Of a stretch of 64,000 bases of DNA, positions 10,378 to 46,269 are shown one piece after another. The position numbers and the translations under genes were made by a program. Under the pieces are notes generated by a model that was not told where the DNA came from, did no database searches, and worked only from the letters and a program-made list of their open reading frames with translations. This DNA comes from Candidatus Nomurabacteria bacterium (lineage in GTDB: Bacteria > Patescibacteriota > Minisyncoccia > Phycocordibacterales > UBA9973). The stretch lies in the NCBI GenBank assembly GCA_026395915.1, contig JAPLXU010000013.1, positions 16,428 to 80,427 of the forward strand. The letters are read 5' to 3'. The stretch's first letter is position 1. Every line of letters begins with the position of its first letter.

Positions 10378-11088
10378 ATGAGCACCGAAAATAAAAAAGG
10401 CACAGAGCATCCGCTTTCTATTGTTATAAACGAAGCAGTAAAGATCTTTACTGATTTGGGTTTTGAAGTTGCCAGCGGTCCAGAGCTCGAAGATGTTTGG
10501 CATAATTTCGATGCCTTGAATGTTCCCAAAGATCATCCAGCGCGTGATATGCAGGACACTTTTTACATCAAAGGAGAAGATGGAAAAGTTTTGAGAACTC
10601 ACACCTCGAATGTGCAGATTAGATATATGGAAAACTTTGTGAAGTCCAACAGGAAACCACCGTTTGCGGTCATTTCAGTTGGTAAATGTTTTCGCAATGA
10701 GGCAACCGACGCGACTCATGAGATGCAATTCTATCAGATCGAGGGGTTGATGGTTGGAGAAGATATTTCGATGGCAAATTTGAAAGGAGTGTTATCTCAT
10801 TTTTATAAAAAAATGCTTGGCGAGGACACGAATCTTCGTTTTCGTCCGAGTTTCTTCCCATTTACTGAGCCCTCGATAGAATTTGATTTGAAATATAAAG
10901 GAAAATGGATTGAGATGGGCGGGGCGGGCATGGTGCATCCGAAAGTTTTGGAAAATTGCGGGATTGATTCAAAAAAATACCAAGGTTTTGCTTTCGGTCC
11001 GGGACTCGAGAGGCTCATGGTTATAAAATACGTAATGCCGGACATCAGACCGGCTTATCAAGGCGACTTAAGGTTTAATCAGTTTTAA
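10378..11088 (+). CDS. pheS: Phenylalanine--tRNA ligase alpha subunit (short, catalytic core only)
   Basis: Class II motifs: HPARDMQDTFY, FRNEATDATHEMQFYQIEG, GGAGMVHP..GFAFGPGLERL. Confidence 0.85.
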   Translation: MSTENKKGTEHPLSIVINEAVKIFTDLGFEVASGPELEDVWHNFDALNVPKDHPARDMQDTFYIKGEDGKVLRTHTSNVQIRYMENFVKSNRKPPFAVISVGKCFRNEATDATHEMQFYQIEGLMVGEDISMANLKGVLSHFYKKMLGEDTNLRFRPSFFPFTEPSIEFDLKYKGKWIEMGGAGMVHPKVLENCGIDSKKYQGFAFGPGLERLMVIKYVMPDIRPAYQGDLRFNQF

Positions 11089-11091
11089 TTT

Positions 11092-11484
11092 ATGGAATAT
11101 GTGAAAGATTTTGATGCATGGAATACAAAGAAAAAAATAATTGATCAAAAAGAAACGTCTGATCATGTATTTTTTGCTGAACGTGAAATCTGGTGGGGCT
11201 CGTTAGGATTAAACATTGGATATGAACAAGACGGAAAGAATGAAAATTTTGAGCGTCCTTTGCTTTTGATAAAAAAATTCAATAGAGATATTGTTTTAGC
11301 AGTTCCATTAACAAGTGTTGCAAAGAATAATAAGTTTCATCATAAGTTGAAATCAAGCGGTTCTTTTGTCATACTTTCGCAGATGAGACTTATTAGCACG
11401 AAAAGATTACTTCGTAGAGTGGAGAAAATAACAGATTCGGAATTTGAAGAAATTATTAGTAAAATTAAGAGTTTGTTCCCATAA
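11092..11484 (+). CDS. PemK/MazF-family protein (putative endoribonuclease toxin homolog, orphan)
   Basis: EIWWGSLGLNIGYEQDGKNENFERPLLLIKKFNRDIVLAVPLTS ... SFVILSQMRLISTKRL aligns to the MazF/EndoA core (GSEQ.G.RPvlvi...vaPiTs; ..vl.dqiRtidk.RL). No upstream antitoxin ORF. Confidence 0.6.
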   Translation: MEYVKDFDAWNTKKKIIDQKETSDHVFFAEREIWWGSLGLNIGYEQDGKNENFERPLLLIKKFNRDIVLAVPLTSVAKNNKFHHKLKSSGSFVILSQMRLISTKRLLRRVEKITDSEFEEIISKIKSLFP

Positions 11485-11487
11485 AAG

Positions 11488-11520
11488 CGAAACCCCGCTT
11501 TCGCGGGGAATCTCGGGGGC
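11488..11520. repeat. GC-rich hairpin repeat (family shared with 46041-46071 and 46129-46160)
   Basis: cgaaaccccgctttcgcggggaatctcgggggc. Stem ccccgc/gcgggg. Three near-identical copies in the window, all downstream of MazF-like genes. Confidence 0.55.
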
Positions 11521-11607
11521 CTAACGACCATTTACCTAAGTAGTGTATACTAGACGAAAGGTAAAGTCAAGCAAAAAAAATATTTATAAATAATATATTC
11601 ATAAATT

Positions 11608-11886
11608 ATGGAACTCGAATTAATAGTAATTATTGGATTTATAACGACAGTTTTAACTATCTTGGTAAAAATTGTTGGTTTTCCAGACCAAATAAAGAAA
11701 AATTATCAAAGAAAATCCACTGAAGGAATTTCTACGGCTTTTTATGTACTTTCTTTTATAACATATATTTTTTGGACTATACATGGAATTTTGCAAAATG
11801 ATTGGGTAGTATATTTTGGTCAAGGTCTGGGAATACTAACTACTGGTATCATTGTATTTCAAATATTCTTTTATCATAAAAAATAA
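11608..11886 (+). CDS. SemiSWEET / PQ-loop family small membrane transporter
   Basis: 92 aa, 3 predicted TM helices. PQ-loop-like segment GFPDQIKKNYQRKSTEGIS between TM1 and TM2. Confidence 0.55.
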   Translation: MELELIVIIGFITTVLTILVKIVGFPDQIKKNYQRKSTEGISTAFYVLSFITYIFWTIHGILQNDWVVYFGQGLGILTTGIIVFQIFFYHKK

Positions 11887-11895
11887 TTTTTTGAC

Positions 11896-13716
11896 ATGAA
11901 AATTTCTTACAATTGGCTCAAATCATATATACCAGAAGCTCCCACGCCTGAAAAACTCGCAGAAGTTTTTACTTTTCATATTTGTGAAGTCGAAAGCTTT
12001 GATAGATTACCAAATGGCGACGTTGTTTTTGATTTGAAAATATTGCCGAACCGCGCGCATGATTTGCTTTCTCACCAAGGCATTGCTCGAGAACTTGCTT
12101 CGCTTCTTGATATAAAATTCGTTGATCCGACGGCAAAATATAAAATTCCAAAATCAAAACCGACAAAACTAAAAATAGAAATAAAAAGCAATAAGTGTCG
12201 CCGTTATATAGGCAGAATTATTAGGGGAATAAAAATTGGTCCATCTCCAGAATGGGTAGTAAAACATTTAGAATCCATAGGCCAGAGAAGTATAAATAAT
12301 ATAGTTGATGCCGCAAATCTCGTAATGTTTGATTGTGGTCAACCGACGCATGCTTTCGATTTGGATAAAATACCGGAAGAAAAAATCATTGTAAAGAATG
12401 CTACGGATTTAGAAAATGCTTCCATTACAATGGAAACTCTTGATGGAAAAGTTTGCAAACTGTCGAAAAACGATCTGGTCATAGCTTCTGTCAGCAATAC
12501 ATTAGCTATAGCAGGAATTAAGGGTGGTAAAAAAGCAGAGGTTCATAATGAAACCACAAATATAATTCTCGAATGCGCCAATTTCGATCCTGTGAGTGTT
12601 AGAAAAACTGCGCAAGCCTTGAATATCATTACCGACGCAAAAAAGCGTTTTGAGAATGATTTATCTCCTGAATTAGCCGAGTACGGAATGATGGAACTCT
12701 CAGCGCTTATTTTTGAAATGTGTCCAGATGCGATTTTTGAAGATGTCATTGACGTTTATCCTAATAAGGCTGAACAGAGAAAAGTTTTTGTTTCAGTCGA
12801 TTATATCAACAAGCGTCTCGGCTCGGATTTTTCAAAAAAAGAAATTGAGAATGTTTGGAAAAAATTAAATTTTAAATATGTAGAGAAAAATGGAGAATTT
12901 GAAATCGTGATTCCGTTTTCGAGGATTGATATAAACGATCCATGCGATTTGACGGAGGATGTAATAAGCGTTTTGGGGTACGATAAAATCAAAGAAAAGT
13001 TGCCAGAAACAAAAACTAAATCAAAAATGAATGAAACCTTTGCCAAAATGCTTTGGGCTAGAAACAAACTGCTCGATGATGGATATAGTGAGGTGATGAC
13101 ATACGTTTTCAGAGACAATGGTGAATTGGAAGTATTGGCTTCTGCCTCGGATAAAAAATTTTTACGCACGAATTTAACTGATGGGCTCAAGGAAAGTATT
13201 AAATTGAATCAAACAAACGCGTCGCTTCTTGGAATTGACAAGGTTAGGGTTTTTGAGATCGGGACCATTTTCAAAAAGAAAGGCGAGGAGATGCATGTTA
13301 CGTACGGAGACAAAAAAAATGTTGCCGAAGTCTCTTTGGAAGATTTTTGTAAAGGGCAGATTTTGCAAGGACAGTCCTTAAGAGAGTTTCCCCAAGGACT
13401 GTCCTTGGAAAAATCTAAGGAAACTAAGTTCAAAATGTGGTCCCTGTTTCCCTTTATTGCGCGCGACGTAGCTGTTTGGGTTCCGGAAAATGTAAAAAGC
13501 ACTGAAGTCGCTCAAATAATAAAAGAAAACATGGGAGAAATGGTGGTCCGAGGTCCGGAACTTTTTGATGAATTCAAAAAAGATGGAAAAACTTCTTATG
13601 CTTTCAGATTGGTTTTCCAATCTTACGACAGGACTCTCACCGACGCCGAGGTGAATGAAATTATGACGAAAATAACTGATAAAATAAAAGAAAATGTAGG
13701 TTGGCAGGTGAGGTAG
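11896..13716 (+). CDS. pheT: Phenylalanine--tRNA ligase beta subunit (short form)
   Basis: N-terminus MKISYNWLKSYIPE. B3/B4, B5 and C-terminal anticodon-binding-like regions. 606 aa. Confidence 0.85.
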   Translation: MKISYNWLKSYIPEAPTPEKLAEVFTFHICEVESFDRLPNGDVVFDLKILPNRAHDLLSHQGIARELASLLDIKFVDPTAKYKIPKSKPTKLKIEIKSNKCRRYIGRIIRGIKIGPSPEWVVKHLESIGQRSINNIVDAANLVMFDCGQPTHAFDLDKIPEEKIIVKNATDLENASITMETLDGKVCKLSKNDLVIASVSNTLAIAGIKGGKKAEVHNETTNIILECANFDPVSVRKTAQALNIITDAKKRFENDLSPELAEYGMMELSALIFEMCPDAIFEDVIDVYPNKAEQRKVFVSVDYINKRLGSDFSKKEIENVWKKLNFKYVEKNGEFEIVIPFSRIDINDPCDLTEDVISVLGYDKIKEKLPETKTKSKMNETFAKMLWARNKLLDDGYSEVMTYVFRDNGELEVLASASDKKFLRTNLTDGLKESIKLNQTNASLLGIDKVRVFEIGTIFKKKGEEMHVTYGDKKNVAEVSLEDFCKGQILQGQSLREFPQGLSLEKSKETKFKMWSLFPFIARDVAVWVPENVKSTEVAQIIKENMGEMVVRGPELFDEFKKDGKTSYAFRLVFQSYDRTLTDAEVNEIMTKITDKIKENVGWQVR

Positions 13717-29673: not shown

Positions 29674-31736
29674 ATCAAAACATATTCTATCGTCTTTCGT
29701 TCCAAATCAACTCCTTTCACTTTTATTTTGACTCGATCACCCAAGCGATATCTTTTTTTATTTTTTTGTCCAACTAATTCCAATTTCTTTTCATTGAAAA
29801 TATAAAAATCGTCTTTGAGATCTCGCACACGCACCAAGCCTTCACATTTTGTTTCTGCCTCCTCGACATAGAAACCCCATTCCGTGATTCCGCTTATTAT
29901 TCCCTCGAAACTTTCTCCTAAACGTTTAGACATGTATTCTGCTTGTTTGTATTTTATAGATGCTCGTTCGGCATCGGAAGCGCGTTTTTCTTGTTCGGAT
30001 GAAATTCGTGCGATTTTTTCATATTCAAACATGCGTTCTTTGCCGACTTTTTTACCAGACAAATAATTTGTAAGTAGTCTGTGCACTATTATGTCCGGAT
30101 ATCGCCTAATCGGGGAAGTGAAGTGCGTGTAATGAGAAAAGGCTAGACCGTAGTGCCCGATATTTTCTGTGGAGTAGATCGCTTTTGCCATAGACCTTAT
30201 GACTGCTCTGTTGACCGTATTTTCTTCAGTTTTTCCTTCCAATTTTTTGAGGAGATTATTTATCTCATGACTGGGGATGATTCCGTTTACCAAGGATATC
30301 TTGTGTCCCAAGCTTCGCAGGAAGAATGCCAAGTCGTGCATCTTTTCTTTGCTTGGAAGATCGTGAATGCGGTACAAAGAAATGCTTTCATCTTTTTTAT
30401 CTTTCATTTTTTTTGGAGACAAAACCTGCGCCACTTTTTTGTTTGCTAAAAGCATAAATTCTTCAACCAATCTGTTTGAATCGCCTCGTTCTTTGGTGAT
30501 TACTTTTGTCGGGACTCCATCTTTGTCCAATACGAATTTCACTTCTTCTTGTTCGAGCGATATAGCGCCTTGCGCGAATCTTTCTTTAGTAAGTTTTTTA
30601 GCCAGATCATTTAATATCGACAATTCTTTGTGAAATGGCGCTTCTCTATTTTTGATTGATTCTTCTGCTTCCTCATAGGTGAATCTTTTTTGAGAATGAA
30701 TAACTGTGCGTCCGAACCATTCACTTTTAATCTTGGCATTTTTATCCACGACAAAAACCGCGCCCATCGTGAGTCTGTCTTTGTTCGGCACCAAACTACA
30801 CAAATCGTTCGAAAGTTCTTCCGGTAGCATAGGTATCGTCCTATCCACCAAATACACCGAGGTCCCGCGTTCGCGAGCTTCGAGATCAAGCGCGCTACCT
30901 ATTTTCACATAGTGCGAAACATCAGCGATATGAATGCCGATTTCATAGAGATCTTCTTCTACATAAACCTGCTTTTTTTCAGGTCCTCGGTTCTCCGGGG
31001 CCCCGACCCCGGCCAGACCATGAAAAAAAGCAGGTTTATGTTTCAGACCACAAAACGAAATTGCATCGTCGAAATCTTTTGCGTCAGATGGGTCGATAGT
31101 GAATGTCAAAGTTTTTCTAAAATCTCTGCGTCCCGCATAATCGCTTTCCTTTATACCTTGCCTTTTTATCTCCAAAGCTTCGTGCTCCACATTTTTTGGC
31201 AGTTCCGAATCGAAACCTTTTTCTATGGCGATAGCATGCATTTCGACGTTATTATCTCCCGGATTTCCCAAAATTTTAATAACTTTTCCTTCCGGCATTT
31301 TTCGGGAGTCAGACCAAGAAATTATTTCCACGAAAACTTTCTGACCAACCCTTGCGCCGTTTAACATATTTTCTGATACCAATATATCTATGTACATTTT
31401 CGGATCGTCAGGATTCAAGGAAAAAATATGGTTCTTTGATTCTAATATTCCAACAAAACGCATTTTAGCGCGAGTGATTATTTTTGTTACTTCAGCAGTC
31501 TGTCTTGACTTACCTTTTGAATGCAAAACAATTTCCACCATGTCTCCATGCAAAGCAGTATTCAAATGCTTGAAATCAACTTCAGGATCTTGTTTATCTT
31601 TCTTATTTCCAGTTCCAATAGCGACATATCCAGTGCCTTTTCCTGAAATGGAAATAATGCCCTGCAATCTATTTATTTTCGCTTCTTCATGTCTTCTTTG
31701 GTGTTTCATTCCTTTTAATATAGCATAAAAGTGCAA
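29670..31736 (-). CDS. rnr: Ribonuclease R (RNase II/R family 3'-5' exoribonuclease)
   Basis: N-terminal cold-shock/OB domains. RNB catalytic motif HIADVSHYV. C-terminal S1 domain. 4-nt overlap with capA. Confidence 0.85.
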   Translation of the reverse strand: MHFYAILKGMKHQRRHEEAKINRLQGIISISGKGTGYVAIGTGNKKDKQDPEVDFKHLNTALHGDMVEIVLHSKGKSRQTAEVTKIITRAKMRFVGILESKNHIFSLNPDDPKMYIDILVSENMLNGARVGQKVFVEIISWSDSRKMPEGKVIKILGNPGDNNVEMHAIAIEKGFDSELPKNVEHEALEIKRQGIKESDYAGRRDFRKTLTFTIDPSDAKDFDDAISFCGLKHKPAFFHGLAGVGAPENRGPEKKQVYVEEDLYEIGIHIADVSHYVKIGSALDLEARERGTSVYLVDRTIPMLPEELSNDLCSLVPNKDRLTMGAVFVVDKNAKIKSEWFGRTVIHSQKRFTYEEAEESIKNREAPFHKELSILNDLAKKLTKERFAQGAISLEQEEVKFVLDKDGVPTKVITKERGDSNRLVEEFMLLANKKVAQVLSPKKMKDKKDESISLYRIHDLPSKEKMHDLAFFLRSLGHKISLVNGIIPSHEINNLLKKLEGKTEENTVNRAVIRSMAKAIYSTENIGHYGLAFSHYTHFTSPIRRYPDIIVHRLLTNYLSGKKVGKERMFEYEKIARISSEQEKRASDAERASIKYKQAEYMSKRLGESFEGIISGITEWGFYVEEAETKCEGLVRVRDLKDDFYIFNEKKLELVGQKNKKRYRLGDRVKIKVKGVDLERKTIEYVLI

Positions 31737-45614: not shown

Positions 45615-46127
45615 GTGGTGAAGGTTGAAAAGGGGAAATGGATATTTATGCAAAAAGATTTTGATAAATGGAACACAGAGAAAAAAGCTGTAGATGCAAA
45701 AGTTGTAAATACAGAACTTTTCTTTCATGCTCGGGAAATTTGGTGGTGTAGCGCAGGATTAAATGTTGGAGTAGAAGCAGATGGAAAACACGAAAACTTT
45801 GAAAGGCCGATGCTAATTGTAAAAAAGTTTAATGCGGATATGGTATGGGCGCTTCCACTTACTACGCAAGGAAGAAAAAATAAGTATTATTATAAGTTGA
45901 ATCACGAAGAAGTAAAATCGTGGGTTGTTCTGTCACAAATAAAAACAATAAGCACAAAAAGATTTTTGCGAAAGGTAGGATCTATTTCTGAGTCAGATTT
46001 CAAGGAAGTAATTTTGAGGTTGCAAAAGTTGCTAAAAATCGAAAACCCCCTTACGGGGGCTTTCTCGGAGGCCGAAGCCACTAATACAAGAAGTATAAAC
46101 GGCAATCAAAACAAAGTCAAGCGATAG
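45615..46127 (+). CDS. PemK/MazF-family protein, paralog 2 (orphan). The C-terminal 30 aa are probably read-through into a GC-hairpin repeat
   Basis: REIWWCSAGLNVGVEADGKHENFERPMLIVKKFNADMVWALPLTT...WVVLSQIKTISTKRFL is paralogous to 11092-11484. Homology ends near ..ILRLQKLL, after which the ORF runs through repeat copy 46041-46071. Confidence 0.55.
   Translation: MVKVEKGKWIFMQKDFDKWNTEKKAVDAKVVNTELFFHAREIWWCSAGLNVGVEADGKHENFERPMLIVKKFNADMVWALPLTTQGRKNKYYYKLNHEEVKSWVVLSQIKTISTKRFLRKVGSISESDFKEVILRLQKLLKIENPLTGAFSEAEATNTRSINGNQNKVKR
46041..46071. repeat. GC-rich hairpin repeat copy (ccccc-ttac-ggggg + tttctcggagg)
   Basis: cgaaaacccccttacgggggctttctcggag, inside the 3' end of the MazF-like ORF. 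Confidence 0.5.
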
Positions 46128-46128
46128 A

Positions 46129-46176
46129 CGAAACCCCCTTTCGGGGGTTTCTCGGGGTCTCCGACAAGGGAGACAT
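46129..46176. repeat. GC-rich hairpin repeat copy plus adjacent hairpin
   Basis: cgaaaccccctttcgggggtttctcggggtc followed by gtctcc-gacaag-ggagac. Confidence 0.5.
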
Positions 46177-46269
46177 TTACAACGTAAGTATATCAAATAC
46201 AAAAGACATGTCAAGTAAAAAATCAACCTTAATTTACAAGCTTATTATTAAAAATTTAACCAAAATAAT

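Follow-up and report, generated by a model that had tools for sequence, protein, structure and literature searches.

The MazF/PemK-like gene lying between pheS and pheT in this Patescibacteria genome is accompanied by a small RNA gene, predicted on the opposite strand and convergent with the toxin stop codon, and such an RNA gene goes with the toxin family in nearly all of the 80 homologous loci compared. Judging from these sequences, the RNA is probably the antitoxin of the MazF-like toxin. We suggest a two-gene toxin-antitoxin module with an RNA antitoxin, for which a type I-like route is the most likely, at somewhat better than even chances. A sequence-only reading of the window (the whole 64-kb stretch of DNA analysed here) had described the toxin gene as an orphan, a description that no longer fits. 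It had also offered an RNA as one possible antitoxin, and this is the option that the evidence favours. Two of its other proposals, an antitoxin encoded elsewhere and a domesticated toxin, are not needed.

A MazF-family toxin gene between pheS and pheT

The genes of the locus are the following:
10378..11088, plus strand: pheS (Pfam tRNA-synt_2d, E=9e-93)
11092..11484, plus strand: MazF/PemK-family gene, 130 aa (ATG at 11092, stop codon ending at 11484)
11608..11886, plus strand: SemiSWEET/PQ-loop gene (Pfam and NCBIfam matches), downstream of the small RNA gene in the direction of the toxin gene
11896..13716, plus strand: pheT (Pfam and NCBIfam matches), downstream of the RNA gene and on the same strand as the toxin gene

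The toxin ATG follows the pheS stop codon (ending at 11088) after a gap of 3 nt, and the gene sits inside pheS-pheT together with the SemiSWEET gene, both as first read from the sequence. No promoter of its own is visible for the toxin gene, and its transcription probably depends on that of pheS. In the interval from the toxin gene to its SemiSWEET neighbour, the terminator scan called nothing on the plus strand.

The profile search bears out the MazF/PemK core proposed for the 130-aa protein: Pfam PemK_toxin (PF02452) matches residues 32-129 and spans profile positions 4-109 of 109, with E=6e-11 and 43 bits (cut-off 23.1). The N-terminal extension of about 30 aa, also proposed earlier, is real because this match begins only at residue 32. 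PHROG 9567, 'MazF-like growth inhibitor', matches too (E=2e-15) and also covers the N-terminal part. The protein is predicted to adopt the MazF/Kid/CcdB SH3-like barrel fold, with structure 4MDX among the fold matches. The AlphaFold model built from 100 sequences was good (pLDDT 87.6; a 26-sequence run was poorer, with pLDDT 65) and places a helix at residues 7-19. This N-terminal helix bears a KDFDxWNxxKK motif, and in the family alignment (100 sequences, two phyla) W10 and N11 are invariant and D8, K14, and K15 nearly invariant. The beta1-beta2 loop is lengthened, with about five residues more than in type II MazF/PemK toxins.

The toxin carries the motifs FERP (R55) and PLTS (T74). Over those 100 sequences, R55-P56 and P72 never vary, and position 74 holds either Thr or Ser. 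We take the expected catalytic residues to be R25 and T48 in Bacillus subtilis MazF and R29 and T52 in Escherichia coli MazF. The equivalence was set by motif alignment (ERPLLLI vs. QRPAVVV, VPLTS vs. VPVTS), with HMMER putting the loop gap elsewhere. By the motifs kept (R55, P56, and P-L-[TS]), the toxin looks catalytically competent, and we consider it a predicted MazF-family endoribonuclease. The PADLOC defence-system search gave no match.

Between relatives, the toxin is 72-75% identical, compared with 62-70% for pheS and 58-59% for pheT. The GC content of the module is 0.31 vs. about 0.40 in its neighbours.

No conserved protein antitoxin

No MazE/PemI-like ORF was found on either side of the window toxin, on either strand. 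When small ORFs within 450 nt of the toxin gene were clustered over the 80 loci, only alternative frames of the toxin gene recurred. Upstream neighbours belonged to 103 Pfam families, none of them recurring in over 3 of 78 loci; no antitoxin family was among the 25 most frequent. Besides, no MazE/PemI/AbrB/RHH partner lies nearby in the 80 loci. The toxin family has no conserved protein partner, and the absence of a MazE/PemI-like antitoxin, first stated for this locus, extends to the whole set.

Type II MazEF/PemIK (Kid-Kis) toxins and the window toxin share Arg-Pro and Pro-x-Thr/Ser at the catalytic positions, according to the motif alignment. However, the window toxin has an extra N-terminal helix and the longer beta1-beta2 loop, it lacks an adjacent MazE/PemI/AbrB/RHH gene, and its conserved partner is an RNA.

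A small RNA gene convergent with the toxin stop codon

The features read on the opposite strand are:
11485..11537, minus strand: small RNA of about 52 nt (ends predicted), made of leader, hairpin 1, linker, and terminator hairpin
11544..11570, minus strand: small RNA promoter read from the sequence, with -35 TTGACT (11570..11565), a 15-nt spacer, and -10 TATACA (11549..11544)

The consensus promoter scan of the minus strand reported TTGACT-17-TACACT at 11570..11542. The RNA begins with the leader GGUAAAUG, followed by hairpin 1, GGUCguuaGGCC (11529..11518), and the linker CCCGAG, with CCGAG at 11516..11512. Hairpin 2 is the terminator CCCCGCgaaaGCGGGG (11508..11493), and it is followed by the tail UUUCGCUUUU, so that the 3' U-tail overlaps the toxin stop codon. 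The whole RNA gene, promoter included, occupies about 11485..11570 of the minus strand, where our covariance model R1 scores 62.3 bits (11470..11552). The terminator scan called a minus-strand terminator at this gene, and the predicted fold shows both hairpins; in plus-strand orientation, the terminator hairpin lacks a U-tail and was not called by the scan.

On the plus strand, the GC-rich sequence that the earlier reading had placed right after the stop codon is present as cgaaaccccgctttcgcggggaatctcgggggc at 11488..11520, with the core hairpin CCCCGC-TTTC-GCGGGG at 11493..11508. Rather than a mere appendix of the toxin gene, this hairpin is the terminator of a predicted small RNA gene, which lies on the other strand and would be transcribed on its own. 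All sequence-level statements of the earlier reading hold, apart from the end of the feature at 11520, a boundary that cuts through an RNA gene reaching about 11570. The window holds no second good copy of the exact hairpin.

At gathering thresholds, Rfam had no match anywhere in the window, and relaxing to E<=10 around the locus yielded none either; there is no tRNA or tmRNA at the locus. A peptide encoded by the RNA was considered and rejected: frames starting from the AUG/GUG at the hairpin 1 base vary among sub-families and reach the terminator without meeting a stop codon.

Conservation of the RNA and its linkage to the toxin

The two-hairpin structure of the RNA is conserved. In the covariation analysis, 93.2% of cells were paired vs. 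75.2% after shuffling, and changes on both sides of a pair were found in 126 cells vs. 29.6; slid controls gave 36-65% pairing. The strand of the RNA is fixed by 88 G-U cells, each of which would read as an A-C mismatch if the opposite strand were transcribed. Conservation reaches 94-97% at the linker positions C-C-G-A-G, in contrast to the free covariation of the two stems beside them, and this near-invariant single-stranded linker suggests recognition of the RNA by a protein as well. Some sub-families have CUGAG or CUCGAG for CCGAG, and three-hairpin forms without CCGAG also exist.

The R1 scan of the window and the 80 homologous toxin loci, which come from different species, retrieved 72 copies at E<0.1, all on the strand opposite to the toxin gene. 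The RNA abuts the main toxin gene in about 66 of the 80 loci, and most of the loci missed by R1 bear variant RNA forms. Extra matches in two loci (L010 and L049) sit right after second toxin copies. Only two copies have no adjacent toxin gene of their own, one in the window (2b, below) and one in another locus (L002, 3889-3966), each no more than about 100 nt from a module. A promoter of the form TTGAnn-N15-19-TAnnnT is present in 51 of the 60 loci surveyed for it, where the distance from the end of the -10 box to CCGAG is 23 nt (interquartile range 22.5-25). In these loci, the linkage between the RNA and the toxin family is almost obligatory.

The module is found in many different genomic contexts, with several copies per genome. 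The upstream neighbour is co-oriented with the toxin gene in 62/78 loci, and the positions after pheS and after rpoC are recurrent insertion sites. The predicted toxin-RNA pair is widespread in Patescibacteria, and the toxin branch counts 1,705 clusters (50% identity) at E<1e-10, falling to 192 at E<1e-30. IMG/VR contained no relatives of the toxin, and matches in the GenBank phage collection were confined to Campylobacter CJIE4-type prophages.

A paralogue after rpoC with two RNA copies

A second module lies further along the window:
45648..46127, plus strand: paralogous MazF-like gene (P0108), 159 aa, 53% identical, directly after rpoC (tblastn and ORF)
46036..46120, minus strand: small RNA copy 2a, promoter TTGACT-17-TATACT (46120..46092), R1 70.1 bits at 46022..46102
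46127..46214, minus strand: small RNA copy 2b, promoter TTGACA-16-TATACT (46214..46187), R1 48.1 bits at 46111..46197

The R1 scan thus found three RNA copies in the 64-kb window, all beside the two MazF-like genes and all with minus-strand promoter and terminator matches. Copy 2a has the hairpin GGCuucgGCC, the linker UCCGAG, and a 10-bp terminator (promoter and terminator scans, predicted fold), and the last ~30 codons of the paralogue run through it. In tandem with 2a and without a toxin gene of its own, copy 2b has the hairpin GUCUCCcuugucGGAGAC, the linker CCCGAG, and a terminator; its promoter matches at 11/12 positions in the scan, and its predicted fold has a z-score of -4.6. The paralogous toxins of this one genome have distinct RNA variants.

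Homologues of about 155 aa share a conserved C-terminal peptide, IE[NS]PL.GAFSEAEATNT, which we discarded as a protein feature: it arises where the RNA gene is translated in antisense. In two other loci (L011 and L012) this RNA falls outside the ORF, whereas the window paralogue has it within the ORF.

Relatives in Campylobacterota

Homologous toxins on plasmids and prophages of Campylobacter, Helicobacter, and Nitratiruptor also have a convergent promoter and a hairpin at the stop codon. On plasmid pVir of C. jejuni 81-176, the homologue of the window protein (gene 30630..31034) is 32.5% identical over 86% of the query, and it keeps the FDxWNxxKK N-terminal helix, the G.NIG.E..GK...RP core, and the invariant residues of the family. 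A small RNA of pVir, CJpv3, was detected by Northern blot as a 77-nt transcript from 31119 to 31043 on the minus strand (Dugar et al. 2013, PMC3656092 Table S12). It starts about 85 nt and ends about 9 nt after the stop codon of the PemK-like gene, on the opposite strand. Two publications describe the CjrA/CjpT pair of pVir as an experimentally validated type I system (PMC7826846, PMC10470494, citing Shen et al. 2016, Mol Microbiol 101:909). The literature found does not name the toxin gene of CjrA/CjpT; CjpT may be the pVir PemK-like gene, and CjrA may be CJpv3. Nor did it describe MazF-like genes with small RNAs in Patescibacteria.

The pVir arrangement resembles that of the window in having a toxin homologue with an opposite-strand small RNA just past its stop codon. 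However, the Campylobacter RNA is longer, with three hairpins and without the CCGAG linker. Moreover, the Campylobacter copies are on plasmids and prophages, whereas the window copy is set within a core operon for an aminoacyl-tRNA synthetase, in a Patescibacteria genome. R1 fails to detect the Campylobacterota RNAs, and Rfam finds nothing on the Campylobacterota loci; a possible homology of the RNAs across phyla is suggested by layout only.

How the RNA may act

In the type I-like route that we favour, the small RNA would be transcribed toward the toxin gene from its near-consensus sigma-70 promoter, and the intrinsic terminator would end the transcript. Read-through of the toxin transcript over the RNA gene is likely, because there is no plus-strand terminator before the SemiSWEET gene. 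Immediately past its stop codon, the unterminated toxin transcript would contain a sequence fully complementary to the small RNA. Base-pairing there could lead to cleavage and decay of the toxin message, or to its silencing, and an abundant, separately promoted RNA would keep toxin synthesis off. We found no cognate-specific trans complementarity between the RNA and the toxin translation start (p=0.13) or the rest of the toxin mRNA (p=0.058), and therefore antisense action would rest wholly on read-through over the RNA gene.

Masking of a Shine-Dalgarno sequence by the C-rich linker was also considered and rejected, since no such sequence precedes the toxin genes. For a purely antisense RNA, the near-invariant CCGAG linker is superfluous.

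Convergent antitoxin RNAs overlapping the toxin 3' end are known among type I systems, such as txpA/RatA and bsrG/SR4 of B. subtilis and RNA I/RNA II of par in Enterococcus faecalis. As in them, the RNA here has its own promoter and ends at the toxin 3' end, with its 3' tail overlapping the stop codon. Enzyme toxins also have precedents of this type, with the RNA antitoxins of SymE/SymR and RalR/RalA controlling nuclease toxins. The differences are that typical type I toxins are hydrophobic peptides of <60 aa, unlike this 130-aa soluble MazF-fold protein, that the short RNA forms overlap the coding region by a few nucleotides only, and that antisense action leaves the near-invariant linker unexplained. 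The antisense case of E. faecalis mazEF has a different arrangement and was set aside as a model for the present module.

A possible alternative, though clearly a less probable one, is that the RNA would bind the MazF-like dimer and inhibit the enzyme rather than the toxin mRNA, in a type III-like way, with the CCGAG linker and perhaps the 5' leader held in the RNA-binding groove as a pseudo-substrate or a retained product. In MazF enzymes, the dimer groove accommodates 3-7 nt of single-stranded RNA in extended form, and a conserved linker between covarying stems is the pattern typical of a single strand read by a protein. Direct inhibition would also fit the lack of cognate trans complementarity to the toxin mRNA and the distinct RNA variants of paralogous toxins in one genome, and the toxin-less extra copies (2b and that of L002) would raise the antitoxin dose. 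The type III systems ToxIN, CptIN, and TenpIN/AbiQ likewise have a conserved single-stranded motif between structured RNA parts. However, their antitoxin is an upstream, same-strand tandem repeat array, processed by the toxin and with a terminator in between. Here the RNA is not such an array: it stands as one unit, has a promoter and a terminator of its own, and lies downstream of and convergent with the toxin gene, unlike every known type III system. Even the paralogue's two RNA copies each have their own promoter, and the toxin is of the PemK family, not ToxN/AbiQ, CptN, or TenpN. The CUGAG/CUCGAG sub-families and the three-hairpin forms without CCGAG also count against direct inhibition, as does the type I classification of the related Campylobacter system in the literature.

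Taken to its full extent, direct inhibition would define a so far unrecognised, widespread toxin-antitoxin class, in which a MazF-family RNase would be neutralised by direct binding of a single-unit, separately promoted RNA with a CCGAG pseudo-substrate between two hairpins. We regard this class as doubtful at present.

It is improbable that the RNA element is no antitoxin but a transcriptional insulator, or a trans-acting regulatory RNA travelling with the gene. As an insulator, the convergent promoter and terminator would block read-through and shape the 3' end of the toxin message, which suits a hairpin exactly at the gene 3' end, a module mostly downstream of a co-oriented gene, and recurrent sites after pheS and rpoC, where read-through control would matter. 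However, the conserved 5' leader, the first hairpin, and the near-invariant linker would all be unneeded, and the plus-strand hairpin is not terminator-like. Copies of a free-standing regulator should turn up at a distance from toxin genes, but both toxin-less copies are close to a module. For either version, a potentially toxic RNase without a neutraliser would be hard to keep under purifying selection.

Quite improbable as well is a solitary MazF that is domesticated and non-toxic, or checked in cis by its N-terminal extension, with the hairpin incidental. The conservation of the N-terminal helix residues across phyla favours this idea, as does the loose resemblance of the acidic-aromatic DFDxW motif to what we take to be the Trp-containing C-terminal tail of MazE that plugs MazF; a gene better conserved than pheS and pheT also suggests a maintained cellular role. 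Nevertheless, the hairpin is part of an RNA gene found alongside the family almost everywhere, the catalytic-type residues appear intact, and the monomer model cannot place the helix relative to the dimer-interface groove.

Finally, a mobile-element end, an attachment or recombination site, or a genome-wide REP/MITE-type repeat is very improbable: the many genomic contexts, the lower GC, and the multiple copies per genome would fit, but the window has only three copies, all at MazF-like genes, neither inverted nor direct repeats flank the element, a linked recombinase is lacking, the promoter is conserved at a fixed distance, and the compensatory changes and G-U pairs point to selection on RNA rather than on a DNA site.

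Significance

MazF/PemK toxins are textbook type II toxins, and database records label all members of this sub-family as 'type II toxin-antitoxin system PemK/MazF family toxin', despite its RNA partner and the lack of a protein antitoxin. If the direct-binding class were true, it would be a hybrid of a type II toxin and type III logic, and well over 1,000 MazF clusters now labelled 'type II' would be mis-typed. The module would then be a stable resident of core operons (pheST, rpoBC) in Patescibacteria, perhaps with toxin synthesis coupled to the transcription of translation and transcription genes. The system also poses the biochemical question of how an RNA could inhibit a MazF RNase and not be cut by it.

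The RNA lies outside any Rfam family and is therefore missing from Patescibacteria annotation; to our knowledge, regulatory RNAs in Patescibacteria are almost unknown. It links a module of an uncultured lineage to a Campylobacter plasmid system that can be manipulated. Stable residence in essential operons of very small genomes, together with high conservation, suggests a role beyond selfish addiction, for which growth control and phage defence are candidates.

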